A stretch of DNA of 64,000 nucleotides from NCBI GenBank assembly GCA_018368455.1, contig JAGZEG010000005.1, positions 104,654-168,653 of the forward strand. Direction: 5' to 3'. Position numbers and translations under genes: made by a program. The DNA is from Coriobacteriia bacterium. GTDB lineage: Bacteria; Actinomycetota; Coriobacteriia; Coriobacteriales; UMGS124. The first letter of the stretch is position 1, and each line of letters opens with the position of its first letter. The notes below the pieces were generated by a model. It did no database searches, had not been told where the DNA came from, and saw nothing but the letters and a program-made list of their open reading frames with translations. Shown one piece after another: positions 14,671 through 61,971 of the stretch.

Positions 14671-14704
14671 TTGATGCCACCCTCCCGGGCTATTAAAAAT
14701 ACTC

Positions 14705-26963: not shown

Positions 26964-27062
26964 GCGGTATGACGCCCGGGGCAGCCAGGTGAGTGGGCTT
27001 GCTGTTTACTGCTGTGCTACAATTAACGACGATAGTAAACAGCGAGAGGCAGGGGGTGTGTC

Positions 27063-27332
27063 ATGACCGTTTCATATGCGTTGCGCGTCGACGAGGACGT
27101 CAAGCAGCGGGCTTCCGAAGTCTGCAAGTCCTACGGGCTCGATCTTGCGACGGCTACTCGTGCCTTTTACGCCCAGATTGCTCGAACGAAGAGCATTCCT
27201 CTGACGTTTGCCGTCGAGGAGCCCAACGAGGAGACGAAGGCTGCACTTGCGGAGGCGAAAGAATTTGCCGCCTCGGGCCGAGAGGGGTCCTACGCATCTG
27301 CAGACGAGCTGTTCGCGGCGCTGGATCTGTAG
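27063..27332 (+). CDS. dinJ: Type II antitoxin, RelB/DinJ family
   Basis: LRVDEDVKQRASEVCKSYGLDLATATRAFYAQIARTKSIPLTF (ribbon-helix-helix pattern). 89 aa, directly upstream of the toxin. Confidence 0.8.
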   Translation: MTVSYALRVDEDVKQRASEVCKSYGLDLATATRAFYAQIARTKSIPLTFAVEEPNEETKAALAEAKEFAASGREGSYASADELFAALDL

Positions 27333-27335
27333 CCC

Positions 27336-27626
27336 ATGCTGCGAATCGAGCCTTCTCGAGCATTCTGCCGCGACGCCAAAAAGCTCAAGGCGAAGCACGC
27401 CGATCTGTCCAAACTTCGTGAGGTTGTCGAGCTTATCAGTCAAAACACCACCGAGTCGCGGGCGGAGCTGCGTCGCCATCACAAGATGCACGTTCTCTCG
27501 GGTGCCTGGGAGGGCGCCAATGAGTGCCACGTGTGCAATGTGGGGGACTGGCTACTCATCTGGACTGTCGAAGGGAACACTGCCTTCCTGGCCAGAACGG
27601 GCTCGCATGACGAGCTGCTGCGATAA
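27336..27626 (+). CDS. yafQ: Type II toxin, YafQ/RelE family mRNA interferase
   Basis: FCRDAKKLKAKH...HHKMHVLSGAWEGANECHVCNVGDWLLIW...ARTGSHDELL. Starts 3 nt after the antitoxin stop. Confidence 0.8.
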   Translation: MLRIEPSRAFCRDAKKLKAKHADLSKLREVVELISQNTTESRAELRRHHKMHVLSGAWEGANECHVCNVGDWLLIWTVEGNTAFLARTGSHDELLR

Positions 27627-27706
27627 GCTTGCCGGCGCTCGGGTTAAGGTTTAAGCGGTTCCATTCAAGTATGAGCGCGTGTCGTTTTGGAGTCCTGAGA
27701 GTGAGC

Positions 27707-30370: not shown

Positions 30371-30544
30371 GATGGCGGCTCCGTGTTTCACGGGGGTTTA
30401 GCTTTCCGGCCTTTCGCCCGACGGCTCGGACAGGGACGTCGTGGGCGTGGATTCCTGCGGTTCGGGTGGGGGCACGATCGAAGGGCGACACGGGGCCAGA
30501 GGGGCGATCGGGCACAGCGACATTGGCGATGGGGAAGGGCTGCG

Positions 30545-31639
30545 ATGGGTGGCGAACAGGCGATGCCGAGCAAGACGGCTCCTCGGGGCCGTATCGCCTA
30601 TTTTGACATTGCCAGGGGCGTCGCGATGCTCGCGGTCATCGTGGGCCACTCTTCGGCACAGGGCATCCCCTGGCCCATCGTTAACTTCTGCTACTCGTTT
30701 GACATGCCGCTGTTCTTCTTTATAAGCGGCTACTTCTGCAGGCCAGATGTACGCCTCGACGCTCGCTACGTCGCCAAGAACGCCCGCGCCTTGTTACTGC
30801 CGTATTTGTGGACGAGCATCATCCTTCTCGCCTTGTTTGCCGTGCGCGGCCTGCTTATTCCCGAGCAGGGCGGCGGAGTCCTCGAGCTTCTCCAACGCTG
30901 GTCTCTGGCTTGCTTGTACGGGGCGGGAGGGCAGTTCGCGGGACTGCCGGCGGGCATTATCGGCATTGGCGCTCTTTGGTACCTGCTTGCCCTGTTTTGG
31001 GCCAAATTGCTGCTTGCGCTTGCGAACCGGCTGCCGGGGACACCCGTTATCGTTGCGGCCCTGTTCGTGTTGGGATACGCGTCCACGAACTGGGTGACGT
31101 GGCTGCCTTGGCTCCCGTGGAGCATCCAGCCCGCCCTGTGCGCAACCCTTTTTCTCTACCTCGGCCAGCTTGCCCATGCGAGGGGTTTGTTTGAGCGGGG
31201 CGCGCTCCATCCTGCCGCCTGGGTTGCCATGCTCCTCATCTGGCTGGTAGACGGCATATGGGGAGGGCCCATCTATCTGGTGAGCAACGAGTACGGGCAT
31301 GGAGTGTTTGACCTGGTCGGAGGCGTGTTCGGTGCTTTGTGCGTCATCAAAGGCTGCCAGCTGTTCGAGCGTCGTTTCCCGAGACTGGTGTCCGTGCCCC
31401 AGGCGTTCGGCTCCATCACGCTACCGGTGTTTTGCATGCACCTGGTCGAGATGAATGTCCTGCCTTGGGATCTCATGTTCGAGATGCTGGTCGACTTGCC
31501 GGGGCCCGTTGTCCTGGAGGCCGTTCTGCTGCGCTGCGCTATTATCGCGCTTCTCACGGGCGCGCTCTGGCTTCTTCCGCGCCCTATCTCCGGGGCGTTC
31601 TTCGCGGCTCGTCGGGATTCCGTGCAAGCGCCGCACTAG
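30545..31639 (+). CDS. Membrane acyltransferase family 3 protein (OatA-like)
   Basis: YFDIARGVAMLAVIVGHS followed by about 10 hydrophobic segments. Start is ATG 30545 or 30563. Confidence 0.75.
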   Translation: MGGEQAMPSKTAPRGRIAYFDIARGVAMLAVIVGHSSAQGIPWPIVNFCYSFDMPLFFFISGYFCRPDVRLDARYVAKNARALLLPYLWTSIILLALFAVRGLLIPEQGGGVLELLQRWSLACLYGAGGQFAGLPAGIIGIGALWYLLALFWAKLLLALANRLPGTPVIVAALFVLGYASTNWVTWLPWLPWSIQPALCATLFLYLGQLAHARGLFERGALHPAAWVAMLLIWLVDGIWGGPIYLVSNEYGHGVFDLVGGVFGALCVIKGCQLFERRFPRLVSVPQAFGSITLPVFCMHLVEMNVLPWDLMFEMLVDLPGPVVLEAVLLRCAIIALLTGALWLLPRPISGAFFAARRDSVQAPH

Positions 31640-31711
31640 AGCGTTTCATCCTCTATCCTGTCAGGGATGCAGAAAACGGGTCTGTTGTCCCAGATAAGGA
31701 TTGTTGGTGCC

Positions 31712-33838
31712 ATGGCAGAGAAGCGCGCGTTGTCCGTTGAAAAAAGCTTGGGCGTCACGCCTCGTGCGCCGCGCGTCACCGTCATCGTACCGGTCTACAA
31801 CACCGAGCGATATCTCGAAGCCTGTCTTGACAGCCTTGTGAACCAGACGTTTTCTGACATAGAAATCCTCTGCGTAGACGATGGCTCCACCGATAGCTCC
31901 GGCGCGATGCTCGACGCCCGCGCGGCTCGGGATGCGCGCATCCGTGTCATTCATCAGAGTAACGCCGGCGTTTCTCACGCGCGCAACGTGGCGCTGGACG
32001 CAGCGTGTGGAGAGTACATCCTCTTCGTGGACTCCGACGACTTCATTGACCTCGATACCTGCGAGAAGCTGTTGAACATCGCAGATCGCGACGGGGCGGA
32101 CATCGTCGTGTTCGGCGGAGTGTCCTTCCCCTCGGTTGGCTGGATTGACGCCTGCTTCGATACGCACGACGCCGTTTATCGAAACGACAGCTTTGGCGCA
32201 TTGTTCTACGAAAACGGCTCTCATCCGTTGATGTGCAACAAGATGTACCGGCGCTCGCTGCTCAACGACAACGGCCTGCGCTTCAACGAGACCTTCACGC
32301 TGGGCGAGGACAACGCGTTCCAGTTCTGCACGTTCCCGCGCGCTCGGGTGATCTCGTACTGCCGGGACACGTTCTACCACTACCGCTGTGAGCGAGAGGG
32401 CTCTGCTGTCAACGCCGCCGAGGACGATCGCGTGGCGCGGTTGGTCAAGCACGTGGCCATCGTCGAGTACGTTGTCAACCAGTGGGCTCAGGCGGGCTTT
32501 TTGCCGGGGCAGGAAGAGCGCCTTCTCTCGTGGTCGTCCGAGTTTCTCTCGAGAGACATCCTGTATATTTCGCAAGCCGATCGTATGCGCTTTGCGCAAG
32601 AGTACCGGCGCATCGCTGACGAGCATGGCCTGATGGTGGGACATTCTAGCCAGGCTCCCTATCTGCACGACCTCACCGATTTTGTACGCGCCGAGCTGTC
32701 CGTTTCGCCCGAGACCCCAACGGTCAGCGTCATAGCGGTGTCGTGCTACGATGAGACGTGCCTTGACCAGGGCTTTGTCTCGCTGGCCAACCAGTACCTG
32801 CAGGACGTCGAACTGCTCTGCGTTGATGCCTATCCGGACCGGCCTTCGTCGGTCGAGCTGAAACGCCTCGTCGCGAGCGACGAGCGGGCTCGTCTTGTCG
32901 GTACGGTTGGCGAGGCGCTGAGGCTGGCGCGGGGCTCGTTCGTTATCTGCGCTCACCTGAGGGATCACTACGATTGGTATGCGCTGCGCGACATGGTGCA
33001 GGCGGCCCGGGGAGTTACCCCGGCTGCCGACGTGGTGACGGTGCGCGACTGGTTCAACCATCTGCGCACGCAGGATCTAACCCGCTCCCTTCACATGCTT
33101 TCGAACGACGGAACCAAGCCTCTCGGCCAGGCCGATCGCGCATCGCTCGCTCCCGCAGAGCTGGGCGACGACCTCCTCTCGTTCTCGTCCCTTGACGCCT
33201 CCAACAAGCTGTGGCGCACCGACTTTGCACGTAGCGTCGAGCTGGACTTCACAAGTGCCGCCTCTGTCGCCCTTGCCCTCATGCAGGCACGGACTATCGT
33301 GCCCTTGCCCGCGCACCTGATGCGTCGCGGCTCGTACAAGGGGATTACGGTGGACGGTGCCCGCAACCTGGCGCGGAAGCTGGGCGATGACATGGCACAG
33401 CTGTACCGTGCGCTCGAAGAGGGGGGACTGCTGCCCGTCCACGAGAAAGGCTACGTGAACGCCTATCTCTCGGGGGGCATGTGCCTGCGCGAGCTTATGC
33501 GCAGCGATGACATCGAACAGGCGTTTCTTGAGTCTTTTGCGGGCTTGCTGAGGGAGTCTCGCCTGCTTGACGGGCACGATAAGTGGTGGTTTGTGAATGC
33601 TCGCGACTACGAGTGCGCCCAAAAGATCCTGTCAGAGGGTGTACGCAGCTTCCTCAACCTCGACCGGTACGACAGCATCGAGGACCTCTCCTCCTACATC
33701 AACGTGCTGGAGTCTCAGCTTTCTGACGCCCGCCGGGAGATCGGCTGCCTTCGTGGCTCGATGAGCTTTAGGGTGGGTCGCGCCGCGACGAAGATTCCTC
33801 GTAGGCTTGTCGATCTGCTCCATCGCTTACGTCGCTAG
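31712..33838 (+). CDS. Glycosyltransferase family 2 with a second degenerate GT2-like domain and a C-terminal coiled-coil/basic tail
   Basis: VTVIVPVYNTERYLEACLDSL...DDGSTDSS...FVDSDD. Second module VSVIAVSCYDETCLDQ. ATG 31667 is an alternative start. Confidence 0.8.
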   Translation: MAEKRALSVEKSLGVTPRAPRVTVIVPVYNTERYLEACLDSLVNQTFSDIEILCVDDGSTDSSGAMLDARAARDARIRVIHQSNAGVSHARNVALDAACGEYILFVDSDDFIDLDTCEKLLNIADRDGADIVVFGGVSFPSVGWIDACFDTHDAVYRNDSFGALFYENGSHPLMCNKMYRRSLLNDNGLRFNETFTLGEDNAFQFCTFPRARVISYCRDTFYHYRCEREGSAVNAAEDDRVARLVKHVAIVEYVVNQWAQAGFLPGQEERLLSWSSEFLSRDILYISQADRMRFAQEYRRIADEHGLMVGHSSQAPYLHDLTDFVRAELSVSPETPTVSVIAVSCYDETCLDQGFVSLANQYLQDVELLCVDAYPDRPSSVELKRLVASDERARLVGTVGEALRLARGSFVICAHLRDHYDWYALRDMVQAARGVTPAADVVTVRDWFNHLRTQDLTRSLHMLSNDGTKPLGQADRASLAPAELGDDLLSFSSLDASNKLWRTDFARSVELDFTSAASVALALMQARTIVPLPAHLMRRGSYKGITVDGARNLARKLGDDMAQLYRALEEGGLLPVHEKGYVNAYLSGGMCLRELMRSDDIEQAFLESFAGLLRESRLLDGHDKWWFVNARDYECAQKILSEGVRSFLNLDRYDSIEDLSSYINVLESQLSDARREIGCLRGSMSFRVGRAATKIPRRLVDLLHRLRR

Positions 33839-33864
33839 CCGCCTCTCACCCGGAAGGGAATGCC

Positions 33865-35130
33865 ATGAAGGTCAGCGTTCTTGTCCCCGTGCACAATTCG
33901 GCTCCCTATCTTGAGGCGTGCCTTGACTCGATTCTCGCCCAGTCCATGGGCGACATCGAGGTGATTTGCGTTGACGACGGCTCGTCCGACGAGTCCCCTG
34001 ACATCCTGAGGCGCTATGCGGAGTCCGACGGGCGCGTACGTGTTATCACGCAGGGTTGCGGAGGCGTGAGCGCTGCCCGTAACGTCGCGCTCGGGCACGC
34101 GCGGGGCGAGTACGTCCAGTTCGTCGATTCCGATGATGCGATCGAGCCCGGCCTGCTCGCGGGGGTCCTGGAGGTCGCCGAGCCGCTCGACGCTCAGATG
34201 GCCTCCTTTGGCTTTTCGGAGTGGTACGCAAAGGACGACGTGCTCATAGCTCGCGAGCTCTGCGCTGACGAGTCTCTATACGGCCGTGCCTTCTCGCTTG
34301 CCGACATACAGGGGCCGGCAACGGGCCTCATGACCCCTGCCGTGTGGCACACGCTGTTTCGGCGGGACTTCTTGGACGGGCATGGGATCCGCTTCCATGA
34401 GGAGCTGCGCACCTCGGAGGACCTTGCTTTTACCTACGAGGCGCTGTCCTGTGCCGAACGCATCTGTCTTGTGGGAAGCCGCTACTATCGCTATCGCCGT
34501 GATGCCTCCGCCGCAACGCTAACCCGTGTCGACCGGGGCCTCGACGGATATCGCGCCCTCGAGCACATCGGGGCGTTCAACGATGGGGCGTACCTCAAGG
34601 GCGGGCTGGTGGCCCACTACGTCAACCTCGTTCTGGATACGGTGCGCTACGACCTGTACTCCGCGGCGACCGCGTCGGAATATCTCGAGCTCTATCGCGG
34701 CCTACTTGATCACTGGCTTCCGCTGGCCAGGAGCCATGAGGAGCTGATTGATGAGCGTTACCGGGCGTTCTATCAGAAGGTCCGCGACAAGGACGCTCAG
34801 CAGTTCCTGTTCGACGAATATGCCGAATATCGCGATGCCCTAGAGTTCCAGAACGCGCGGATACGGGGCTTCTACGAGCGGGAGCTCTCGACGCTGCGCG
34901 ACAGGCTGGGCGAGCAGGAGCGGGCGCTCGATGAGTCCCGCCAGGAAGTGACTCGTCGCGATGACCGTGTGGTCTATCTCGAGAATCTTCTTTCCGAGAC
35001 GCGAGGGGCGCTCGATTCTGCGCAACGGGGCGAGCAGGAGGTGCGTGCCTCGTATGCCTTCCGCATCGGGCGGGTGCTGACCTGGCTTCCCTCTCGGTTC
35101 AAGGCGCTCGTCAGGCGCGTACGGAGATGA
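33865..35130 (+). CDS. Glycosyltransferase family 2 with a C-terminal coiled-coil/basic tail
   Basis: VSVLVPVHNSAPYLEACLDSIL...CVDDGSSDES...FVDSDD. RBS GGAAGGGA. Confidence 0.85.
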   Translation: MKVSVLVPVHNSAPYLEACLDSILAQSMGDIEVICVDDGSSDESPDILRRYAESDGRVRVITQGCGGVSAARNVALGHARGEYVQFVDSDDAIEPGLLAGVLEVAEPLDAQMASFGFSEWYAKDDVLIARELCADESLYGRAFSLADIQGPATGLMTPAVWHTLFRRDFLDGHGIRFHEELRTSEDLAFTYEALSCAERICLVGSRYYRYRRDASAATLTRVDRGLDGYRALEHIGAFNDGAYLKGGLVAHYVNLVLDTVRYDLYSAATASEYLELYRGLLDHWLPLARSHEELIDERYRAFYQKVRDKDAQQFLFDEYAEYRDALEFQNARIRGFYERELSTLRDRLGEQERALDESRQEVTRRDDRVVYLENLLSETRGALDSAQRGEQEVRASYAFRIGRVLTWLPSRFKALVRRVRR

Positions 35131-35235
35131 TGGGCTAAATAACCTGCATGTGTACGGTGTAAGATCGACGCAGTGAGACCAGGCGTCTCACGGAGCGGCG
35201 AGGAAGAGAACGACGGAGCGCTCGGGGGTTTGGCG

Positions 35236-36234
35236 ATGGGACTGTTTAGCAAGAAGCACGATGGCGGTAGCGAGATCGCGGTTTCGGTTCTCACGCCAAT
35301 CTACAACGTTGAGAAGTATCTGCCCGAGTGCCTCGACAGCCTCAAGGCGCAGAAGCTCAAGAACATTGAGTTCATCTGCATCAATGACGGCTCGACGGAC
35401 GGCTCGCTCGACATCCTCAGGCGCTACGCTGCCGATGATCCGCGCTTCGTCATCATCGACAAGCCCAATTCAGGCTACGGCGCGTCGATGAACTGCGGCC
35501 TCGACAAGGCGCGCGGCGAGTATATAGGCATCGTCGAGTCCGACGACGTCGCTTCTCCTAAGATGTTCAAGAAACTGTATTCATTTGCAAAGAAGAATGA
35601 TTGCGACATCGTAAAGTCAAACTACTTTGAGTATGACGGCACCAACGACGTATTCCAGGACGTTTTTGGCAACTTCCGGCTTGGCAAGCCGTTTGACGTC
35701 CGTGACGACCTCGAGGTCATGAAGGCGCTGCCCATCATCTGGGCAGCCATCTACCGTCGCTCGATGCTTGTCGACAATAACGTCCGCTTCAACGAGACGC
35801 CGGGCGCATCGTTCCAGGACACGTCGTTCGTATTCCAAGCATGGGTTGCCTCTCGCCGCATCGCCCTGCTCAAGGACGCCTTCCTACACTATCGCGTGAG
35901 CCGCGCCGAGTCGTCGGTCAAGAGCGACTCCAAGGTGTTCGAGGTGTGCAAGGAGTACGAGCTGAGCTATGAGTTCATGCATCGCGACCCGCGCCGCGTC
36001 GAGGACTTTGGTAAGCTCGTCAACGTCATCAAGCTGGGCACGTATCGCTGGAACTACAACCGCATTGCCGAACAGCATCGCCCTGCCTTTTGCGATCGCT
36101 GGTCTCAGGAGCTGAGGCGCGACGATGCCGAGGGACTTCTGGATGCCACGCTGTTCACGCCCCAGGACTGGCGGGTCATCTGCGCTATCCGGGATGACCC
36201 CGCTGCATTTGTGGCCTCGCATCCCGAAATGTAG
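35236..36234 (+). CDS. Glycosyltransferase family 2
   Basis: VSVLTPIYNVEKYLPECLDSL...INDGSTDGS...IVESDD. Confidence 0.85.
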   Translation: MGLFSKKHDGGSEIAVSVLTPIYNVEKYLPECLDSLKAQKLKNIEFICINDGSTDGSLDILRRYAADDPRFVIIDKPNSGYGASMNCGLDKARGEYIGIVESDDVASPKMFKKLYSFAKKNDCDIVKSNYFEYDGTNDVFQDVFGNFRLGKPFDVRDDLEVMKALPIIWAAIYRRSMLVDNNVRFNETPGASFQDTSFVFQAWVASRRIALLKDAFLHYRVSRAESSVKSDSKVFEVCKEYELSYEFMHRDPRRVEDFGKLVNVIKLGTYRWNYNRIAEQHRPAFCDRWSQELRRDDAEGLLDATLFTPQDWRVICAIRDDPAAFVASHPEM

Positions 36235-36248
36235 CGCAGGGGGGCTGT

Positions 36249-38685
36249 ATGTTCGCACGAATTCTCTTTGTGGGCGCGATGCCCTTGGCGGAAGCGGACC
36301 CCTCGTTTCGCCTCTGTGCGGAGCTGCGTTGCGCGGGCCATGCCGTGCAGCTCTGCGACCATCTGCTTGAAGATGGGGACGCCGCCCGAGAGCTTGCGTC
36401 TATGTGCGATACATTCCGCCCCAGCCTCATCCTGTGGGATGCGGACGCTCTTTCGATCGACGAAGCCTGTGTCTCGGTTCTCTCCCGCATGGCCTGTTGT
36501 CTGGCGGTCCTCACGGCCCGATCCGTCGGGGATGAGCTGGATAGGGGTGGGCTCTGTGCCGTGTTCGGCCCGGGGCTGCCTGACGACGCGGTTTTCGTGA
36601 CGCGTGGCAAGGCAAATTGTCTGGCGCGCGGTGCTTTCGATGCAGCGCTTTCCTGCGCGCCCGACGAGACGTATATGGAGGCGCGCGCGGCGACGGAGGG
36701 CCTGACTGGGCGCTCGGGCATCGCTTTTCTGCAAAAGCGAACCGAAGAGCGTGCCCAGCTGCTGGCCCGTGTCTTTGATTCGACGGGTTTACCGGCGGCG
36801 TTTTTCGACCCGTCGTGGGGGACGTTGGGAAACGCCTTGGCCCCAGGCGAGCGCCCTGCTTTTAGCCTACGCTCGGTGCGTTTTGCCGTGTACTGCTCCG
36901 GTGTTGACGATGGACCGACGTATGCCCAGGTTGCTATGCGAATTGCAGAAGGCTGTCTTGTGCTCGTGGAGCGCGGGGCCCTGCCTTCGGCGGGATGCGA
37001 TGCTTTGACCGGCGCCCTGGTCCTGTTCGAGCCCAGTGAGCTCCCTTCCGTCGTCGCGTCCTACGAAGTCGACCCCGCCAGCTACGAGCGCGACCTGAAC
37101 CGCCAGCGGGATGCTGTCACGTCCCTGCCCAACCTCGGAGAAAGCCTTGCGCGTCTGCTGGACTCTCTTGATCGCAGGCAGTCCGCAGCGGGCGGCACGG
37201 CGCTTCTCGCGATGGAGAAACCAGCGCGGGTGTTCGTGCTCAATGGGTGGATCGGTGCTCGAAACTACGGCGACGATTTGCTTGCGCGTTTTACGATGGC
37301 ACGCGTCGCGCAGCGCTATCCAGAAGCCGTATTCCGCGTATTGGGTGCATCCCTGCCGCATGCCCGCCTCGATTTCGGGGTCGAAGCATTCGAGCCGACG
37401 GGAGGTGCCCCTGTCGAACGCGCGCTGGAGGGCGCGACTGCCCTTCTGTATCTCGGGGGCCTTCTCTTCGACGATCCGTCGGCGGTGACCGGGGGCGTTT
37501 CCGAGTTCATGCTCGACCCCTACATGGAGCCCTCTTTTCAGGCGAGTCTCGCTCTGTTCGCGCGTGCTCAAGGCATCCCCGCGATTGGCTTGGGCATTGG
37601 CGCCGGCCCGCTGTCCCGACCCGCCGCGCAGATGGCGGTGCGCCTCATGTCGCTGGCGCGCATGACGTTTCTGGTGCGGGACGCCCATACGTCCGACCTG
37701 CTTCTGGGAGCTGGGGTACCGGCTGAGTTCGTGAGCTTGAAGGCGGATCTCGTGTTGGGATCTGGAGACTACATTCGCTCTCATGCCTCTCGGAAGCTTC
37801 CCGGCGGCCTCGTGGCAGATGGTTACATTTGTCATATCCCTGCGCGACTGTGCGCTCAATCCTCCGAGCTTTGCCGATGACATGGCGCACATCGTGAGGT
37901 GTCTTGTCGGGCGAACGGGACTCTGCGCGGCGTTTGTCCCCTTTGATGTGGGAGACGTGGCCGTTCATGCCCGCGTGATTGACATCCTAAGGGAGCAGGG
38001 CGTGCAGTCGCGCTCCATCGTGTCGTTTGAGGAGCGCTTATCTGGACCGGATATCCTTGCGGTCATCGCGGGTTCACGCATGACGCTAGGCATGAGGTTG
38101 CACTGCTCGATTCTCCACCACGTTTTGGGCAAGCTCGCACTCGGCATCGACTATAACGACAAGGTTCATGCCCATTATGAGAGCATGGGGCAGCTTGACG
38201 TGCTGCTGGCGCTCGGCTCTTCTGCAGAGGACGCAGATGCCGCGATTGAGAGGGTGTTGGCGGACCAAGACCAGAGGTTATCCGTTATATCCGGGCACGT
38301 TGCCAGGGCCTCTCGCCTCGTCGACGAGGCGTTCGACGAGCTGTTCTCTCTGATAGACGCCACGGCAGAAGGCGACGCGAGCTCTCAGGAGATATGTGAA
38401 TGGAAGGCTCTTTCTGGTAGGGATGGCCTTTTCTTCTACCCGCGCACGGTTTCGCGCAGCAGGCGGGAAGAAATGCAGCAACGGTGCCACGTCGACGAGC
38501 TTGAGCGACGGGTCGCGCAGCTGAGCGACCAGCTCGAGCGAAGTGCGTCGGAGGCGGGCCGGCTGACTCGGGAGGTTGCCGATGTGCGCGCGTCTCACAG
38601 CTATCGGCTGGGCAACGCCCTCATGCGCATACCGGCCTACATCAAGCGCCGTTTTCGGGGCGAGGGCTCGGCGCCTCGGGGCTAA
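36249..38685 (+). pseudogene. CgeB-like N-terminal domain plus a CsaB-like polysaccharide pyruvyl transferase, interrupted by a 1-nt frameshift near 37815-37825. This may instead be an assembly error.
   Basis: ORF 36249..37880 carries VFVLNGWIGARNYGDDLL...LYLGGLLFDD...GIGAGPL...VRD...ADLVL. ORF 37783..38685, in the +1 frame, continues with VTFVISLRD...FVPFDVGD...GMRLHCSILH...GIDYNDKVHAHYESMG. Together they are collinear with a complete pyruvyl-transferase fold. Confidence 0.6.
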
Positions 38686-38883
38686 CACCTCAGGGTGAGG
38701 CACGAGACTGCACGCTGATGACACGCTCGATGCCACCCTGACTACAATCGATCCGCACGCAGTCGGCCTACATTTGTATAATGGAAGAAAAGCGCTTGGT
38801 GATGGGCCCCGCTGCGACGCTCGGTTGTGGGCGCGGCGGGGCCCATATGGTTGGCCCTGGGGCGCGCTGTCCAAGGAGGTCGT

Positions 38884-40572
38884 ATGCTCTCACGTAGTGG
38901 AATGCGCGTGTTCGCGTCTCTTGCTCTTTCCGCGCTCATCTCGGGGGGCGCAGGCGCTGCTGCGCTTGCCGAAGAGCCGCCGATCTTGTCCCTGGGAAGT
39001 TCGGCCGATCCTGCTCTTGTGGAGCCGTACGGCGAGGCCGAGGCTCCGGATTCCTTGGTCGGCGACGCTGCGCTTCCCTGTGAGGATGAGGAGGCCGGCC
39101 TCGGGTTCGATGCGGCGCCCGAAGGCGTGACCAAAGGCTCCGACAGCTGGCAAGCCGACGAAGGCGATACAGGCGAGGCCTACGATGAGGACGGCGCTGT
39201 CGATGGTGCCGCCGACCCCAGCGAGCAGGGCAATGGAGCAGGACCCGTCGAGGAGGAAGACGGCGTTCCTGTGGACGGGGACGCGCCTGCTGATTTGGAC
39301 GATACCATCGACGATGCCATAGATGGCGCCTCCCAGGTTCAGCCGACAAGCCCGGAGGCTGGGCTGCCTCAGGCGGGCGAATCTACCTCGCAGGACTCAT
39401 CTTCCGACGGGACTGCTGGCGGACGTTTGGGGGAGACAGGCCAGGCAGACTCTTCCGATGAGGCGGCCTCGTCTAACGAGGGCGGGGCGGATGCGCCGAT
39501 GTCGGGGGCATCTCTTCCCGTCCAGGGCGATGAGGCACCGGACGCTGAGGCCGATGCCGCTAAGAATGTGCCTGCGCGAACGGCCGGATGGCACACCGAA
39601 GGGGGCAAGACCTACTACGACGACGCGACTGGCGAGAGACTTGTTGGGGAGCACCGAATTGATGGTGCGTGGTATTACTTCGACCCTGACAACAATGGCG
39701 CCATGGCTACGGGGTTCGTGCGCCAGCCTATCTCGTCGGGCCCCGGCTCGTTCAAGGTCGCCTATTACGGCGACGACGGCAGGCGTTTGTCGGGCGTTCA
39801 GAGCGTTGACGGCAACACGTTCTTCTTCGATGACGTGTCCGGTGCCCTGTCGACGGGCTTCATTCGCCAAGACGCGAACGCGTTCAACTTCTACGACCTT
39901 GGCAGCGGGACTCGGCTGTACGGTCAGCAGGTCATTCACGACCAGCTGCGCCATTTCGACGAAGCGACGGGAGCTCTCTCGACGGGGCTCACGACGCTTA
40001 CGGGAGAAGACGCAAAGACGGTCTACTACGACCCCTTTGACGGCTCTATGCAGTATGGCCAGCAGTATGTCGATGGTCGATGGCACTTCTTCGATGAGGA
40101 TACAGGCCGCATGTATACGGCCGAGGAGGAGCGGGATCGCGTCCTGGCGGTTGCCTATGACTCTGTCGGGCAGTCTGAGGGACAGGCGTGGGGATACCAG
40201 AATGACGTCGTTGCCGCAGGTGGGCGCTACTGCATTGAGGGTCCCTGTATGAGCTTCGTGTGGCACTGCTTCAAAGCGGCGGGCATGGATCGGTTCCTCG
40301 CTGACGGGTTCGTGTCTGGCTGGCCGCATGAAGTGTATGACTACATGTGGTGGCATGGGCAGGCGTCTTCAACGCCCCGAGTCGGAGACGTCGTTTTCTT
40401 CAAGTATCCCGGCACGTTTGCCGAAAGGGACGACCTGTCAGCAAGTCATGCCGAGATTGTCGTCGAAGTAAACGATACTTATATTCTATCAATAGGCGCT
40501 CTCGAAGGGGGTATCCAGGTGCATTATTTCCCCTATGACTATATCGTTGGGTATGGCGTGCCGAGCTACTGA
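38884..40572 (+). CDS. Secreted wall hydrolase: signal peptide, acidic linker, cell-wall-binding (CW_binding_1-type) repeats, then a C-terminal CHAP / papain-like amidase
   Basis: ATG 38884 follows AAGGAGG. Signal peptide MRVFASLALSALISGGAGAAALA. Repeats GWHTEGGKTYYDD...IDGAWYYFD. C-terminal domain CMSFVWHCFKAAG...GDVVFF...SHAEIVV. Confidence 0.8.
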   Translation: MLSRSGMRVFASLALSALISGGAGAAALAEEPPILSLGSSADPALVEPYGEAEAPDSLVGDAALPCEDEEAGLGFDAAPEGVTKGSDSWQADEGDTGEAYDEDGAVDGAADPSEQGNGAGPVEEEDGVPVDGDAPADLDDTIDDAIDGASQVQPTSPEAGLPQAGESTSQDSSSDGTAGGRLGETGQADSSDEAASSNEGGADAPMSGASLPVQGDEAPDAEADAAKNVPARTAGWHTEGGKTYYDDATGERLVGEHRIDGAWYYFDPDNNGAMATGFVRQPISSGPGSFKVAYYGDDGRRLSGVQSVDGNTFFFDDVSGALSTGFIRQDANAFNFYDLGSGTRLYGQQVIHDQLRHFDEATGALSTGLTTLTGEDAKTVYYDPFDGSMQYGQQYVDGRWHFFDEDTGRMYTAEEERDRVLAVAYDSVGQSEGQAWGYQNDVVAAGGRYCIEGPCMSFVWHCFKAAGMDRFLADGFVSGWPHEVYDYMWWHGQASSTPRVGDVVFFKYPGTFAERDDLSASHAEIVVEVNDTYILSIGALEGGIQVHYFPYDYIVGYGVPSY

Positions 40573-40626
40573 CACTGAGGGTGCACTCGTGTTGTGGGAA
40601 CGAGACTCTGGAAAGGAGTTGGCCGA

Positions 40627-42744
40627 ATGCTTTTCAGGATGGGAGCGCGCACGTTCGCGTCGTTGTCCCTGACGGCGGTTGTTGCATGCTCGGCGATGGG
40701 ATCCGTAGCGCTGGCAAGCGAGAGCGCGACGGTTGAACCAAGCGGGCAGGAAGTGGCTGTTCCGGAGTTCTTCACGAGCGGCTCTGGCGACGACGTCGCA
40801 GGGGTGCTCATTGACGAGTCGTCTCTGTTGACGCCCGACTCTGCTGCACCGAGCGATATGCCGGGTGATGTGTCGGAGGGCTCCGTCGCGACGCCTGAGG
40901 ATACGGCATCTTCTGGCGACCTGGTTGCCGAGCCTCCGGCCGGCGGCGCGGGGAACTCCGGGGATGTTATCCCGCCGCAGGGGGATCCTGCTGCTCCAGA
41001 GGATGCTCCGGCGTCCGAGGGCACCGGGGAGTTTGGGACTGACGAGGCCCCGGCGTCCGGGACTGACGCTGCCCCCGGCGACGACGTGCCGCCCGTAGAG
41101 AATGATGCAGCTCTTGATGAGGCTGCTCCCGACGTGCCGGATATCGATGCCGGCGCTGCCGAAGGCGCAACCGAGCCGGGGATCGAGGAGGGGGTTCCTG
41201 CCGATCCCAAGCCCTCTTCACCCACCGCTCCCGAGGCCAGCGCGCCTGAGACGGATCCCTCTCCGGAAGGGGGGCAGGATCCAGACGTCTCGTCTCCGGA
41301 CGTCGCTGTGGATTCATCTGCCGACAAGGGGGAGGCTGACTCCGGGGTGGCTAGCGCTCCCGAAGAGGACACTGCGGACAAGGCAACCGCGCAGACCGGC
41401 TGGGTTGTCGATAAGCAGACCGGCAAGCGCTACTACTACGGCGAAGATGGCCAAAAGGCGTCCGGCGAGCTGAAGATCGATGGCAAGTGGTACTACTTCG
41501 ATCCCACTTCGGACAATGCCATGACGACCGGCTTCGCGCGCGTCGCGGTGTCCTCGGGGTCCGGCTCGTTTAAGGTGACGTATTACGGCAAGGATGGCGT
41601 TCGCGTCTCCGGCTCGCGCACCATTGACGGCGACTCGTACTACTTCGACAAGACGACGGGAGCCATGACGACGGGTTTCCTGCGCGATCCTAGCGGCAAG
41701 GGCTACTCGTTCCACGCGCTGGACGATGGCCGCAAACTCACCGGCGAGCAGCCCCTCCACGGCGGCTGGCGCGATTTCGGTGCCGACGGCTTCATGGAGG
41801 TCGGGTTCGGCACGGCGGAGCAGGGAGGCCCCTCAAGGAAAGTCTACTATGACGAGTACGACGGCGCCCGGGCGAGTGGCGAGACGAACGTCAAAGGCAG
41901 TTGGTACTATTTCAACCCCACCAATGGCGCCATGGCGACGGGGCTGACTGAGGTCACCACCCAGCAGGGCGGCGTGAAGACCGCCCTGTACGGCAGCGAC
42001 GGCAAGAGGAAGTACGGCGAGCAGTACCTCAATGGCGGCTGGTACTACTTCGACGAGGCCGACGGCCATATGCTCACCGGCTGGAAGTGGCTCAACAACG
42101 GCGATCGCATGGTCTACTACGGTGCCGACGGACGCATGCTGCACGGCACGCACGTCATCGACGGGTATCGTCGCGTCTTCGACAACGAGACCGGCGCCGT
42201 CAACAAGTACGGGTACCAGAACCCTCTCGGGTACTACCAGGTGAGCACCTGGAACGTATGGGTCCCCAACTACTCGGGTAACCCGGCCTTTTCGTACGTC
42301 TCGCCGTCGCAGATTGGTCTTGCCGCCGATCGCTGGGACTGCATCGAGACGTTTATCAGCCGCGCCTATGATTACATGTATACGCCGTACGTGTGGGATT
42401 ACGCGCTGGCACCTGGCGTTGGCATCGACTGCGCTGGCCTGGTCATGCAGGCGCTCTATGCGACGGGCATGGACCTCGGCAGCGGCTACACGCCTTACGA
42501 CCATTACTTCACGCCCGGTCACGACCACTACGCCAACGACATGGCGGCCGACCCGGGTTTCATGACGGTGCCGTTCTCCGATCGCCAGCGTGGTGACCTG
42601 ATCTTCTATCCGGGCCATGTTGCCATCTATCTGGGGGACGATCTGGTTATCGACTCGTTCCCCGGCAACGGGTACTACGGCGTTGCCGTTCGCAGCATGT
42701 GGCACTACGACGTCAACTACATCGTAAAGAGGCCGTTTGTGTAA
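40627..42744 (+). CDS. Secreted wall hydrolase: signal peptide, acidic linker, cell-wall-binding repeats, then a C-terminal NlpC/P60 domain
   Basis: RBS GAAAGGAG. Repeats GWVVDKQTGKRYYYGEDG...IDGKWYYFD. NlpC/P60 motif GIDCAGLVMQALY...GDLIFYPGHVAIYLG. Confidence 0.85.
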   Translation: MLFRMGARTFASLSLTAVVACSAMGSVALASESATVEPSGQEVAVPEFFTSGSGDDVAGVLIDESSLLTPDSAAPSDMPGDVSEGSVATPEDTASSGDLVAEPPAGGAGNSGDVIPPQGDPAAPEDAPASEGTGEFGTDEAPASGTDAAPGDDVPPVENDAALDEAAPDVPDIDAGAAEGATEPGIEEGVPADPKPSSPTAPEASAPETDPSPEGGQDPDVSSPDVAVDSSADKGEADSGVASAPEEDTADKATAQTGWVVDKQTGKRYYYGEDGQKASGELKIDGKWYYFDPTSDNAMTTGFARVAVSSGSGSFKVTYYGKDGVRVSGSRTIDGDSYYFDKTTGAMTTGFLRDPSGKGYSFHALDDGRKLTGEQPLHGGWRDFGADGFMEVGFGTAEQGGPSRKVYYDEYDGARASGETNVKGSWYYFNPTNGAMATGLTEVTTQQGGVKTALYGSDGKRKYGEQYLNGGWYYFDEADGHMLTGWKWLNNGDRMVYYGADGRMLHGTHVIDGYRRVFDNETGAVNKYGYQNPLGYYQVSTWNVWVPNYSGNPAFSYVSPSQIGLAADRWDCIETFISRAYDYMYTPYVWDYALAPGVGIDCAGLVMQALYATGMDLGSGYTPYDHYFTPGHDHYANDMAADPGFMTVPFSDRQRGDLIFYPGHVAIYLGDDLVIDSFPGNGYYGVAVRSMWHYDVNYIVKRPFV

Positions 42745-42870
42745 GGAGTTGCGGATGCCGGGCGGTCTTTCTGGATGCGTGCTGTCCTGATTGGCTGTAC
42801 CGAAATCCGAAGGGGCCAAGCGAGGCAGAACTCGAGTTCCGCCCGAGGAATTGAGTGAAGGGATAGTCCT

Positions 42871-44253
42871 GTGACTGAACGACTGAGAAGAACTGCGTCA
42901 CGTGCCCTTGCCGTGATGCTGGCCATCTTGTTGGTGTGCGCGTGCGTGCTGCCTGGGACCGCGCAGGCTGCTCCGTCGCGCTTCCCTGATGTGGACAGCA
43001 CGCACTGGGCAGTGGACGAGGGGTGGATCGACTACGTTGCGGACAACCGGATCATGACCGGCGATTCTGCAACTGGTAACTTCCTCCCCGAGAGCGGTAT
43101 CACGCGAGGACAGTTCGCCACCGTTCTCTATCGCATCGCGAACCCCGGGAGCGATGCGACGACGAATCCCTCCCACTTCGAGCAAGCCTCGAAATTCCCG
43201 GATGTCGCGGGCGGGGTGTACTACACGGCCGCGATCAATTGGTGCCGCGATAACGGCATCACGACGGGAGACTCTGCGACTGGTAACTTCCTCCCTGAGG
43301 ACAACATCACGCGTGCGCAGCTGGCTACGATGGCATACCGGTTCGCACGGGTCATGGGTGCCGACGTGGACAATATCGACTACAGCGCGTTTAACGCAAC
43401 GCCTGACGGGGATCTCGTTCCCGGCTCGATGTTCGACTATGCGTATGTGCCCCTGGCATGGGCGGCTGATCGCGGCGTGCTGACGGGTACGATCGATGAC
43501 GGCGTTGCCTGGCTCGACGTCCGCGCGACGGCGACGCGTGCGCAGGCGGCGAAGGTCCTCACCGTTCTCAAGCGCGACGTCGTCGAGATGAGCGGCGTCT
43601 ACACGGTCGCCTTCAACTCCAACGGCGGATCTATCGTTCCTTCCCAGACGGTGACGTCGGGCAACAAGGCTCAGCGCGCCTATCCGACGCGCAATGGATA
43701 TGTCTTCTGGGACTGGTATGCCGATAAAGAGCTGACGCGGGTCTACGGTTTCGACTCCAACGTGACTGGCAACATCACGCTGTATGCGAAGTGGGTGACC
43801 AAGCAAGAGGCCCTGGCCATGGGCGAGGAAGCCGAGGCGCGCGGCATCGACATCGTGGCGCTTGCCGCAGAGGTCGAGGCCGAGGAGAGGGCTGCCCAGC
43901 CCGAGGAACCGGTTGCTGATGTGCCTGTGACGGATGAGACCGGTGACCCCTCCGTTTCGGCTGACGAGGATCCCTCCATGCCGGATGAGCCTGTCGACCA
44001 GCCGGTTGTTTCCGAGCCCGATGAGGTGCCTGGCGATAGCGATGAACCCGTCATCGATGGCCCCGCGGTGCAGCCCGGCACGGACGATGGCTCGACGGAC
44101 GAGCCCACGTCGCCTGACTCCTCTGGGGCCGGCGATGGAGCGGCTGATTCCGATGCCGCTACCGATGTCGACGGGGCTTCCGAGCCATCCGAGCCTGCCG
44201 TGGCGAATGGGGCCGACGCTGATGCCCCCGGGGAGTATGTCCCCGCTGCATAG
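42871..44253 (+). CDS. Secreted protein with 3 SLH domains, a Listeria-Bacteroides-type (Flg_new) repeat and an acidic tail
   Basis: Signal peptide ...LPGTAQA. SLH motifs FPDVDSTHWA...ITRGQFATVLYR, FPDVAGGVYY...ITRAQLATMAYR, and TRAQAAKVLTVL. Flg_new repeat YTVAFNSNGGS...NGYVFWDWYADKELT. GTG start. Confidence 0.8.
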   Translation: MTERLRRTASRALAVMLAILLVCACVLPGTAQAAPSRFPDVDSTHWAVDEGWIDYVADNRIMTGDSATGNFLPESGITRGQFATVLYRIANPGSDATTNPSHFEQASKFPDVAGGVYYTAAINWCRDNGITTGDSATGNFLPEDNITRAQLATMAYRFARVMGADVDNIDYSAFNATPDGDLVPGSMFDYAYVPLAWAADRGVLTGTIDDGVAWLDVRATATRAQAAKVLTVLKRDVVEMSGVYTVAFNSNGGSIVPSQTVTSGNKAQRAYPTRNGYVFWDWYADKELTRVYGFDSNVTGNITLYAKWVTKQEALAMGEEAEARGIDIVALAAEVEAEERAAQPEEPVADVPVTDETGDPSVSADEDPSMPDEPVDQPVVSEPDEVPGDSDEPVIDGPAVQPGTDDGSTDEPTSPDSSGAGDGAADSDAATDVDGASEPSEPAVANGADADAPGEYVPAA

Positions 44254-44267
44254 CGCGTTTTGATATC

Positions 44268-44309
44268 TCGCGCGTCGCTTTCGAACAGGAGGCGACGCGC
44301 GATGTCTTT
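44268..44309 (+). terminator. Probable terminator
   Basis: tcgcgcgtcgc / gcgacgcgcga gives an 11-bp stem, then tgtcttt. Confidence 0.5.
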
Positions 44310-44321
44310 GAAAGGACGATT

Positions 44322-46658
44322 ATGCGACATAAAGAACGGGGAGCTTGCAGCTCAAGTGCCGGGGCGGGTCTGTGGGGCTGCCATTCTGCGGTCATGCTCG
44401 CGCTCGGGCTTTTGGTGGCGGTGTCGCTGGCGGGTTTTGCTCCGGCCGACAATGCCTGGGCTGGTGAGGCGGGGGAGGCTCCCGTTGGTGCTGTCCTGAC
44501 CGAGATGGCCGGCGCTGTCCCTCAACCTGCAGAGAGCGACGTCGCGGATCCGGATGCGTCACTCGCTGACGGTGCGACCTCCGATGGTGTTCTGGCGGAC
44601 GAAGCGGGAGCCTCGGGTCTTGATGGCTCAGACAGCGAGGACGCGTTCGTGTCCGACAGCGCAGAGGATGCTTCGGGATCTGAGGCTGGGCAGGGGACTG
44701 GCTCTGCTTCTCCTGATGAGGGCGGGGATCCTGCGGTGCCTGGCGCGGCTACAGATGGGTCTGCGGTGTCCGATGGCGACGAGACGCTTGCCGATTCGGT
44801 TTCGCCAGAGGTCTCGGCCACCCTCGATGCTTCCGATGGCGAGGGATCCGCGTCCCTTCTTGGTGACGAGGAGTCGGCTCCCGTTTCTTCGACGGGAGTC
44901 GGCTTCGTCTATGTCGACGAGATGGCTCCAACCCTTGGGAGCACGCAGAGCGTTGCCGTTGTCCTCGACGATGACCAGCTCGTGCTGACCGGGGCGCGCC
45001 TCGCCTACGCTGATGGTACGGGCACCACCCGAGAGATCGATGCCTCGGCTCTGGCTGGCAACGCGGCCCTCTTCCAGTTCTCTCTGGATGCCCTTGGCAC
45101 ATACCAGCTTACGGGGCTGAAGTACGATGCCATCTCCGCTGAGGGAACGACAATCTCCGGCGCGGTTCTCGACTTCGCGGGCATCGCCGACTCGGCGTGG
45201 TCATTCACGGTATCCGATGGCACTAGCGTCGCTTCTATCGAAGACGGCGCGGAAGAGCTGGGCGCTGCCTCAATGTACGGGATTGCCAGCGATGGTTCTC
45301 TGTGCGAAGTCGGCTCCTTGGCTGAAGCGGCGTCGCTTTCGGGTCTGGACGCCACGTTTCGCACGATTGGCCGTGATGCGAGCTCCGGCGAGTTCGTTAT
45401 CGCGCTTGACCCCGGCCACGGCGGCTACGATTCCGGTGCGATTGGATATGGCCTGCAAGAAAAAGACCTCACGTGGGCTATCACGCTTTACTGCAAAGAG
45501 GCTCTCGAGCAGTATCCCGGGGTTCGCGTCGTGCTCACTCGTTCCGAGGACGAATGCCCGTCTATTTGGGATCGCGTGCAGCGTGCCTACGATGCCGGGG
45601 CCAACGTGCTCGTGAGCATCCACATCAATTCCGATCCCAGCGGCTCGGCCTCGGGCGCAGAGATCTGGTTTCCCAACGGCAGCTCTTGGAAGTACGCACA
45701 GACGCATGTTCCGGGCGAACAGCTTGCGCAAAACGTGCTGGACAAACTGGTGGCGCTGGGCTTGAACGACCGCGGCATAAGGGTCCGCACGATGCTGATC
45801 AGCGAGATCGAGGGCCCGTCCGACATCAACCCTGATGGATCTGCGGCGGACTATTACGGCATCCTGCGCTATGCGCGTCGCCTTGGTTTCACGGGCGTCA
45901 TTGTCGAGCACGCCTACATCTCCAGCTGGAGTGACGCTCAGCTTATGGGGTCTGATGCCATGCTGCGCCAAATGGGCTATGCCGATGCCGAGGGAATCGC
46001 CCAAACGTATGGCATAGGGACGGATCTTGCCTCCCCGTTTGGTGATACCCTGCCGGGCTCGTGGTACATGGCGCAGGGGTGGATCCCCTATGTCGTGGAG
46101 AACGGTTTGATGACCGGTGCGAAGGACGACGACGGCGTAGCGCGCAACTTTTATCCTGATGATTATCTGACACGTGGCCAGGTCGCCACAATTCTCTACC
46201 GTGCCGCAAATCCGAACTCGACGGACACGACTGACCCCGCCGCCTATGCCCAGTACTCGGGCTTCCCCGACACCGGGGAGTACCTCTACTACAACGCGGC
46301 CATCTCCTGGTGCGCCGAACAGGGCATTGTGACCGGTTACAACGGCAACGACGGAAATGCCGGCAAGTTCCTGGCCGACCGACCTATCACGCGCGAAGAG
46401 CTCGCCACGATGGTCTGGCGTTTTGCCGAGAAATGGGCGGGCGTCGACGTCTCCAACCCGGACCCCACCAACTTTAACAAGTTCACCGACAAGGAAGAAA
46501 TGTGGGCGTATGGCATAGACGCCATCAGGTGGTGCGCGTCCGAGGGCATCATCACGGGTGACGACCTTACCAAGCGGATGCTGCCAAACGAGTCGGCGAC
46601 GCGCGCCCAGGCCGCCAAGGTAATCACCGTTCTTCACCGCGACGTGCTCGGCGCATAA
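44322..46658 (+). CDS. N-acetylmuramoyl-L-alanine amidase (Amidase_3) with an acidic N-terminal region and C-terminal SLH domains
   Basis: IALDPGHGGYDSGA...VSIHINS...GAEIW. C-terminal SLH motifs FGDTLPGSWY...LTRGQVATILYR, FPDTGEYLYY...ITREELATMVWR, and ATRAQAAKVITVL. Confidence 0.85.
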   Translation: MRHKERGACSSSAGAGLWGCHSAVMLALGLLVAVSLAGFAPADNAWAGEAGEAPVGAVLTEMAGAVPQPAESDVADPDASLADGATSDGVLADEAGASGLDGSDSEDAFVSDSAEDASGSEAGQGTGSASPDEGGDPAVPGAATDGSAVSDGDETLADSVSPEVSATLDASDGEGSASLLGDEESAPVSSTGVGFVYVDEMAPTLGSTQSVAVVLDDDQLVLTGARLAYADGTGTTREIDASALAGNAALFQFSLDALGTYQLTGLKYDAISAEGTTISGAVLDFAGIADSAWSFTVSDGTSVASIEDGAEELGAASMYGIASDGSLCEVGSLAEAASLSGLDATFRTIGRDASSGEFVIALDPGHGGYDSGAIGYGLQEKDLTWAITLYCKEALEQYPGVRVVLTRSEDECPSIWDRVQRAYDAGANVLVSIHINSDPSGSASGAEIWFPNGSSWKYAQTHVPGEQLAQNVLDKLVALGLNDRGIRVRTMLISEIEGPSDINPDGSAADYYGILRYARRLGFTGVIVEHAYISSWSDAQLMGSDAMLRQMGYADAEGIAQTYGIGTDLASPFGDTLPGSWYMAQGWIPYVVENGLMTGAKDDDGVARNFYPDDYLTRGQVATILYRAANPNSTDTTDPAAYAQYSGFPDTGEYLYYNAAISWCAEQGIVTGYNGNDGNAGKFLADRPITREELATMVWRFAEKWAGVDVSNPDPTNFNKFTDKEEMWAYGIDAIRWCASEGIITGDDLTKRMLPNESATRAQAAKVITVLHRDVLGA

Positions 46659-48222: not shown

Positions 48223-48441
48223 GGGTGGGAACCTCCTTGGGGTCGAAAACGCCCACATAATACTTGGCGCAAATATCCGTGACGTGAACAGGGCAGGCTT
48301 GTTGACGAGCTCCCTTGGAACGGCGGGCCCGCCGCGGCCGTGAGGCGATCCGTCGCGCTGCTCCTATCCGGCGGGGTGGATGCTTTGTAAAGGGGGATAA
48401 TGAACGAGAAGCGCGCGTCTTGGTAGGTGAGGGGGCTGGAG

Positions 48442-60445: not shown

Positions 60446-60653
60446 TTCAGAGTATGCAACGCTTTTGGTGTTTCGCTTACTAAACCGAAAAGCTTTGAAT
60501 GCATTTTGGCGGTCTACATTCCGTGAAGTGAATAGTTGTCGGGTAATCTAGATGAGTTGAATTTTGCCTAATACATATAATTCAACTGGAGAATTCTTGC
60601 GCGATGGGGCGCTCTTGTTTTTTGTGAACGCCTTGGTTGGATGGGAGATGTGT

Positions 60654-61835: not shown

Positions 61836-61971
61836 GGGCGGAGCGCTGAAGCGAGGCCGAGATCCAGGCAACTGCGAGCCCTTCTGGGGAAGAGACGATT
61901 TACTGGCTTCTTGGCGCAGCATGTAGAACGTCAGACCAGGCGTGTTTTGCGCGAGCGGCAAAGGAGAGTGC

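Follow-up and report, generated by a model that had tools for sequence, protein, structure and literature searches.

Does the stretch at 36249-38685 of a 64-kb window from one Coriobacteriia genome hold one broken gene or two genes, is the break real, and what has become of the enzyme? Two overlapping open reading frames (ORFs) lie there on the plus strand, as do the glycan-synthesis genes upstream and both SLH genes downstream that are described below. A first-pass annotation of the window had taken them for the halves of a CsaB-like pyruvyltransferase split by a frameshift, close to the surface-layer homology (SLH) proteins that its product would be expected to anchor, and had offered three explanations: lost SLH anchoring, an assembly error, or a gene read by +1 recoding. 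We found that the locus is a single gene broken by one inserted A at 37827 and that the insertion is an inherited mutation; a recent loss or strong reduction of function by ordinary inactivation is its probable consequence.

ORF1 (36249..37880, 543 aa) encodes native residues 1-526, followed by 17 out-of-frame codons (ICHIPARLCAQSSELCR) and a TGA stop. ORF2 (37783..38685) is read in frame +1, encodes native residues 527-811, and is 300 aa long from ATG 37783 or 288 aa long from ATG 37819, the start chosen by gene callers. The GC content at third codon positions (GC3) switches from frame 0 to frame +1 around 37750-37900, indicating that coding really changes frame in this interval. Membership of PF04230 (PS_pyruv_trans) was judged by the gathering score of 25.3 bits together with domain coverage. 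ORF1 alone matched only profile positions 1-157 of 280 with 20.5 bits, under the gathering score, and ORF2 alone gave no pyruvyltransferase match in Pfam; the joined product (ORF1 + ORF2, 812 aa) passed, spanning positions 1-279 of 280 with 38.3 bits (E=1.8e-9). This coverage and the single-chain homologues, which are collinear across the junction, bear out the first-pass view of one collinear pyruvyltransferase: 36249-38685 is a single gene, broken in two.

An intact 811-aa orthologue (P0036), which shares a 90%-identity cluster with ORF1 and carries a precomputed PF04230 match, is encoded in syntenic position on contigs L002-L004, and one of the three belongs to GCA_963556965.1. Nucleotide alignment with its gene showed 94.6% identity and 1 gap column in 2,437, the extra A at 37827, where the window reads GGT TAC [A] TTT GTC and the orthologue GGC TAC TTC GTC. 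The native junction is ...LVADGY|FV(I/V)SLRD. The frame change had thus rightly been called as a single nucleotide; its proposed position, 37815-37825, ended 2 nt short of the lesion, and the proposed junction ...ADG|VTFV did not stand.

A single-base indel is a typical signature of assembly or sequencing error in a gene that is truly intact, and a broken family member in another contig (L023, whose 'contig_' style assembly shows numerous short ORFs) resembles a long-read artefact. Against an error here, at least 12 contigs shared the identical insertion; they stem from different studies and represent at least 9 assemblies made independently (SPAdes, Logan and others). The context of the inserted A, TACATTT, contains no homopolymer and no repeat. 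The locus was read in seven of these contigs (L001 and L005-L010), which differ in ENA or Logan sample and in assembler; all seven carried the A, each differing from the window at no more than 3 positions (single-nucleotide polymorphisms, SNPs, and single-base indels) over 4.6-9.5 kb. Proteins of two NCBI 'Coriobacteriia bacterium' metagenome-assembled genomes (MAGs) showed the same split (MBS5450480/81 and MBS5478121/22). Sublineage B (L006, L007 and L010) has a C-to-T change at 37826 (TAT-A) and a tract of seven G (G7) before ORF1, the other sublineage has TAC-A and G6, and both carry the A. No intact allele of >95% identity was found among ~15 billion proteins, the nearest being the 94.6% sister allele. 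A degenerate pattern spanning the site had 0 matches in a scan of JGI metagenomes. Because the insertion is common to two diverging sublineages and many assemblies, it must have been inherited: it is a genuine mutation, shared by all members sampled from a near-clonal lineage, and the assembly error first considered can be set aside as having a negligible chance of being correct.

Phase variation and transcriptional slippage were ruled out because the site lacks homopolymers and repeats; the one tract that varies is a poly-G run at the ORF1 ribosome-binding site. This tract (G6, 36239..36244) forms the Shine-Dalgarno region 5 nt before the ORF1 ATG, with an anti-Shine-Dalgarno duplex of -10.0 kcal/mol. 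The run has five G in the intact sister lineage, compared with six in the window and seven in sublineage B, and these differences alter the spacing between Shine-Dalgarno sequence and ATG; the tract may be a hypermutable expression tuner or plain homopolymer noise.

Two further observations concern the lesion itself. A 10-bp hairpin or quasi-palindrome at 37812-37835 (GUGGCAGAUG-GUUA-CAUUUGUCAU) spans ATG 37819 as well as the inserted A, whose pairing partner is the U of that start codon. The insertion improves the inverted repeat, which hints at a templated (quasi-palindrome) origin. The C-to-T change at 37826 was the sole intragenic SNP in three of the seven related contigs (L006 4480, L007 4433 and the L010 3025 region). 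It is synonymous in ORF1, and in the ORF2 protein it replaces a Thr by Ile; family members have Tyr or Phe at this conserved hydrophobic position. One of ~4 SNPs would fall within 1 nt of the insertion with a probability of ~1e-3, and the change could be an indel-associated mutation or a compensatory one.

To which family did the intact enzyme belong? The best NCBIfam match of the joined product was TIGR03609 (CsaB), over positions 3-291 of 301 with 69.7 bits (E=2.6e-19), and WcaK models gave only ~12 bits. TIGR03609 has an equivalog cutoff of 213.1 bits, and the joined product failed this test. The label 'CsaB-like' therefore held as far as the PF04230 domain and the closest NCBIfam model go, and did not extend to a Bacillus-type equivalog, the protein having 811 aa and three modules. 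A search of 5.8 billion proteins found ~26 homologue clusters, which are single chains of 675-812 aa, 32-42% identical to the joined product and mostly aligned at 93-99% coverage (E down to 3e-153); a second profile search, of a word-indexed protein database, returned the same 28 proteins as the first. An exhaustive profile search yielded 238 representatives at E<=1e-30 and showed a wider family, in which most members are single chains of 750-830 aa, a group of 540-570 aa, exemplified by L020, is shortened at the N-terminus, and others are larger multidomain fusions. The best 150 of the 238 were single chains, bar a few fragments. Homologues split at the junction seen here, which the first-pass annotation had envisaged as naturally separate genes, were absent among the ~26 clusters and these best 150 of 238 representatives; the fragments P0123, P0130 and P0170 break elsewhere, one of them in an error-prone assembly. 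In a scan of GTDB genomes the family fell within Eggerthellaceae, represented by Slackia, Ellagibacter and uncultured genera of the human, goat and rabbit gut; relatives were matched, and the window's own species had no match. Disruptions at other positions were seen in two family members, one frameshifted within the N-terminal domain (L022 395-1811, a Logan contig) and one divided into several ORFs in what is apparently an error-prone long-read assembly (L023 2314-4888); the gene may thus have been lost repeatedly.

The intact protein is a member of a long-form Eggerthellaceae family with three modules: a GT-B-like N-terminal domain, the PS_pyruv_trans domain, and a coiled-coil/basic tail. 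The N-terminal domain (36249..37214, residues 1 to ~322) is Rossmann-like and, searched in isolation, had no significant Pfam match. More distant relatives align with the profile from position 4 and carry a Glyco_trans_1_2 domain (PF13524) just before the pyruvyltransferase domain (P0027, P0125 and P0138). The homology of the N-terminal domain to this region, together with its lack of a Pfam match, makes a degenerate GT-B-like glycosyltransferase domain the best interpretation. The pyruvyltransferase N-subdomain and the inter-subdomain loop follow at 37227..37826, the C-subdomain at 37828..38214, and a C-terminal coiled coil ending in a basic motif (RASHSYRLGNALMRIPAYIKRRFR) at 38458..38682. 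An AlphaFold model (mean pLDDT 77.6, pTM 0.77) showed the N-terminal domain, Rossmann-like subdomains at residues ~327-512 and 527-655, and long helices. A PDB sequence search with the family profile gave no match at E<=1, and Foldseek with the whole model retrieved generic GT-B folds only (UDP-GlcNAc 2-epimerases), which carries little family information.

The tail is shared beyond this protein. A module of the same type (a coiled coil, then R(A/G)S-x-(S/A)-(F/Y)-R-x-G...(I/L)P...basic) ends two glycosyltransferases encoded upstream, GT2_a (33758-33835) and GT2_b (~35030-35127), and recurs in the GT2_b orthologue of L012 (8906-10153) and in L020 (3755-5410); no Pfam family matches it. The module probably targets these proteins to a common membrane or complex site.

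In P. alvei CsaB, mutagenesis showed R148, R207, R306, H308 and K328 to be needed for phosphoenolpyruvate (PEP) binding or activity (PMC10435577). We mapped these residues through a canonical 369-aa CsaB-like protein, using its LRD, VSVR, MRLH and YDPK motifs and their spacing, and not by direct alignment with K4ZGN3. The counterparts in the joined model, R477 (37677-37679), R533 (37843, corresponding to R207 of loop 1), R617 and H619 (38095-38103) and K639 (38161), are invariant in the family, and the R-x-H motif with K at +20 has spacing identical to that of R306/H308/K328 in P. alvei CsaB. On the acceptor side, Y14 and F16 of P. alvei CsaB (GYYGF) correspond to I335, for which the family consensus is Phe, and the invariant A337, within GW(I/F)GA; because both are replaced, the acceptor may differ from that of CsaB. 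The insertion divides this active site. ORF1 holds the N-terminal domain, the acceptor-side GxxGxxNxGDD motif (GWIGARNYGDD, 37245-37277) and R477, and ORF2 holds R533, R617, H619, K639 and the tail. As the PEP-binding residues are thereby distributed over two chains, the cut runs through the active-site cleft and neither half can catalyse transfer alone.

The frameshifted lineage and the intact one were 93% identical over 12.7 kb, which makes them roughly species-level sisters. Because ORF2 has acquired no secondary lesions and keeps all family-invariant residues, the event appears to be recent. Divergence along the cluster was uneven. Compared with L002, identity per 300 bp over 26233-38972 ranged from 77% (one stretch, with 21 gap columns) or 79% up to 100%; the region encoding the N-terminal domain was 97-98% identical, and divergence within the gene peaked at 37329-37928, around the frameshift (88-90%, dS 0.37, dN/dS 0.03). 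This mosaic pattern suggests that tracts of the cluster have recombined.

Loss or attenuation of function, which matches the first of the three original options, is favoured by the divided active-site residues, the lack of a recoding signal, the weak starts of ORF2 and a raised ratio of non-synonymous to synonymous substitution rates (dN/dS) after the lesion. Against the intact allele, dN/dS was 0.086 upstream and 0.28 downstream of the insertion, suggesting some relaxation of selection on the downstream part. The two ORF2 starts had Shine-Dalgarno scores of -6.4 and -5.0 kcal/mol, which do not discriminate (gene median -5.7, intragenic background -3.2); a GGAG sits 16 nt ahead of ATG 37783, and ATG 37819 is enclosed in the 10-bp hairpin. 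The ribosome-binding signals of ORF2 are thus no better than average.

Several facts pull against inactivation. The downstream dN/dS rests on 28 non-synonymous and 30 synonymous changes and includes an intrinsically variable tail. ORF2 retains all family-invariant residues without further stops or indels, although in so nearly clonal a lineage such retention says little either way. The cut falls in the loop between the Rossmann-like subdomains (model residues 513-526), just before the first strand of the C-subdomain; it removes no native residue and leaves an in-frame ATG three codons upstream, and the Thr-to-Ile change beside it could be compensatory. Both SLH genes are intact. A second pyruvyltransferase could also be encoded elsewhere in the genome; a domain HMM search found none in the 64-kb window.

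Most of these facts would also suit a functional split enzyme, in which ORF1 and ORF2 are both translated (the latter from ATG 37819 or 37783, possibly coupled), the subdomains reassemble non-covalently, and pyruvylation and SLH anchoring are kept. By our estimate from the model, only ~8% of gene positions would cut so cleanly; ATGs in the ORF2 frame precede the first strand by 3 and 15 codons, invariant residues persist in both halves, and the lineage is widespread (at least 12 contigs) with its SLH genes intact. The change at 37826 is silent in ORF1 and alters ORF2 where the family has an aromatic residue, the ORF2 tail common to GT2_a and GT2_b could bring the parts together, and Alg13/Alg14 offers a two-chain GT-B precedent. 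On the other hand, the same ~8% means that some clean cuts arise by chance, the surveyed homologues include no natural split at this point, ORF2 lacks a good Shine-Dalgarno sequence and its nearer ATG is buried in the hairpin, dN/dS is ~3x higher downstream, and near-clonality makes the kept residues uninformative. We regard a working two-chain enzyme as a serious possibility, albeit an unlikely one. The stronger form of this idea, that the insertion created a viable two-chain pyruvyltransferase with Thr-to-Ile as the compensatory change, so that gene fission of a GT-B-type enzyme would be in progress in a natural gut population, is more doubtful still.

Ribosomal +1 frameshifting, programmed or leaky, would instead restore one chain, by a shift at AUU-U (37827-37830) giving ...ADGYIVISLRD or at CCC-G (37800-37803). 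The two frames overlap over ~140 nt (37741-37880), and a shift anywhere in this variable linker would yield a near-native protein; CCC-G is a known error-prone +1 site, and the 0-frame codons after the insertion (AUU, UGU) end in A/U and are rare in this GC3-rich genome. Yet the site has no in-frame stop, no known hungry codon, no correctly spaced Shine-Dalgarno-like stimulator and no homopolymer for transcriptional slippage; the RNA fold is unremarkable (z=-1.44), and tRNA-Ile re-pairs poorly on UUU. The shift is unconserved: the sister lineage and all homologues are read in a single frame, so this is not an evolved recoding signal. The recoding option put forward at first is accordingly very improbable, and recent inactivation remains the reading we prefer.

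What the loss would mean depends on the role of the enzyme, to which its neighbours point. Four glycan-synthesis genes lie upstream: Acyl_transf_3 (30383-31639), GT2_a (31667-33838), GT2_b (33865-35130) and GT2_c (35173-36234). The glycosyltransferase/acyltransferase cluster described in the first-pass annotation is therefore real, with its start corrected from 30545 to 30383. Downstream, 4.2 kb from the pyruvyltransferase gene, are the two SLH proteins it had named, both confirmed by PF00395 (E=7e-16 and 2e-18). The first (42871..44253) has a signal peptide, three SLH repeats (ITRGQ, ITRAQ, ATRAQ), a Flg_new repeat and an acidic tail; the second (44322..46658) has an Amidase_3 domain (N-acetylmuramoyl-L-alanine amidase) and three C-terminal SLH repeats. 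This arrangement is conserved in relatives, which strengthens the proposed SLH link of the gene. A GT2_b orthologue directly precedes the pyruvyltransferase in eight of nine related loci, and in six of the nine, across genera, a protein with an SLH triplet is encoded ~0.1-3.2 kb from the homologue. In L012 the GT2-pyruvyltransferase pair has SLH proteins on either side, and an orthologue of SLH protein 2 adjoins the pyruvyltransferase in L020.

The csaB gene is found in clusters with SLH genes, and mutating it in B. anthracis leaves viable cells that do not retain SLH proteins (PMC6801904). Because the conserved neighbourhood matches that of csaB in B. anthracis and P. alvei, we infer by analogy that the family makes the SLH ligand. 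The intact enzyme would use PEP to pyruvylate a lipid-linked wall glycan built by the adjacent GT2 enzymes, and this modification would supply the neighbouring SLH proteins with their anionic ligand. In the frameshift lineage this activity would be lost or strongly reduced, and SLH-mediated retention of the amidase and the Flg_new protein would be weakened.

The frameshift could also be real and have nothing to do with SLH anchoring, if the enzyme pyruvylates another, capsule-like or exopolysaccharide-like glycan and the SLH ligand is made by a different pyruvyltransferase or is not pyruvylated. The TIGR03609 score below its cutoff, the Ile/Phe and invariant Ala in place of Y14/F16, and the extra GT-like domain are in keeping with this, as is the cluster, in which no TagA- or MnaA-type gene was seen. 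One relative (L012) also has a second paralogue, and our view covers 64 kb of the genome. Weighing the other way, family members from different genera have SLH-triplet proteins next to them, in some cases on both flanks, no NCBIfam model matches better than CsaB, the L012 paralogue looks inactive, and the SLH repeats retain their TRxQ/E motifs. We judge an SLH-independent role unlikely. The paralogue in question, a pyruvyltransferase-like gene beside the main one in a goat-rectum Eggerthellaceae MAG (L012 7016-8875, minus strand), is without GDD and R-x-H and is probably catalytically dead.

Beside the SLH proteins, putative CHAP, NlpC/P60 and beta-lactamase-like wall enzymes with choline-binding-type repeats are encoded at 38827-40572, 40594-42744 and 48427-50664. 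The locus therefore encodes two wall-targeting systems, of which only the SLH one would depend on pyruvylation.

Some features of the wider window were also recorded. GC3 is 0.68-0.78 in the wall-glycan/SLH cluster (30383-46658) versus 0.86-0.91 in the flanking housekeeping genes (glmM, glmS, tsaBD, groEL and amt); possibly the cluster is an island that varies or is exchanged horizontally. Just upstream of it, 27629-30370 encodes a 913-aa fusion with two TsaD-family matches around a GNAT acetyltransferase (TsaB-RimI-TsaD-like), which is conserved (81% aa) beside the SLH amidase in L020. A region of lower GC3 at 2395-14934 resembles a defence or mobile island, with an FtsK/SpoIIIE-like ATPase, McrBC (5422-6771), two AAA_5 proteins and a PDDEXK_4 nuclease. 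A second glycan cluster at 58229-63399, with GC3 falling from 0.69 to 0.46, encodes a GT4-GT2 fusion, a UDP-sugar dehydrogenase and a TupA-like ATP-grasp protein.

Taken as a whole the result is a routine one: in an uncultured gut bacterium, a gene for a surface glycan has undergone a real and recent frameshift. The conserved Eggerthellaceae module of GT2, long-form pyruvyltransferase and SLH genes suggests that SLH anchoring by pyruvylated wall glycan, for which Bacillus and Paenibacillus have been the study organisms to date, also occurs in Coriobacteriia, a class for which we found no literature on such anchoring. The sister lineages, ~93-95% identical, one intact and one broken, form a natural comparison, in which wall pyruvate, the retention of SLH proteins, the localisation of autolysins and phenotypes related to phages or immunity could be contrasted. 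In NCBI MAG records the halves appear as separate genes, 'pyruvyl transferase family protein' and 'hypothetical protein'; the two should be read as one disrupted gene. Were the two-chain reading true, the locus would be a case of gene fission within an uncharacterised Coriobacteriia system of SLH/pyruvyl-glycan anchoring.

Among known systems, CsaB of B. anthracis and P. alvei (TIGR03609; K4ZGN3) shares the PS_pyruv_trans fold, and its PEP-binding set is kept here. Enzymes of that type transfer pyruvate from PEP, as a 4,6-ketal, to the beta-D-ManNAc of a lipid-PP-linked disaccharide. In both species its gene lies in a wall-glycan cluster beside SLH genes (PMC6801904), as it does in the window. 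The differences are of size and distribution: CsaB is a single-domain protein of ~370-400 aa from Firmicutes and Cyanobacteria, whereas the window family, from Actinomycetota (Eggerthellaceae), has 811 aa with the extra GT-B-like N-terminal domain and coiled-coil/basic tail, carries a 12-residue insertion after the GGLLFDD motif, and is here frameshifted. Other PF04230 enzymes, S. pombe Pvg1p (PDB 5AX7), Bacteroides fragilis WcfO and E. coli WcaK, have the same Pfam domain and the two-subdomain GT-B-like fold with a basic cleft between the subdomains (PMC10435577), but act on N-glycans, capsule or colanic acid without a link to SLH genes. Closer in architecture are the 'CsaB'-labelled fusions of glycosyltransferase and pyruvyltransferase in JGI data (P0027, P0028, P0037 and P0125), in which the GT domain likewise precedes PS_pyruv_trans; they are only 24-28% identical, and their GT domains are recognisable by Pfam, whereas the N-terminal domain here is too diverged. 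As for the break, prfB is decoded by a programmed +1 frameshift with a CUU-UGA-type shifty stop and an upstream Shine-Dalgarno stimulator. The window gene also changes frame by +1 within its length, but without a CUU-UGA stop, a Shine-Dalgarno stimulator or a conserved shift. Alg13/Alg14, finally, is a natural two-chain GT-B glycosyltransferase cut, as here, between its Rossmann subdomains; its split is ancient and conserved, whereas that of the window gene is a one-base insertion in a single near-clonal lineage.

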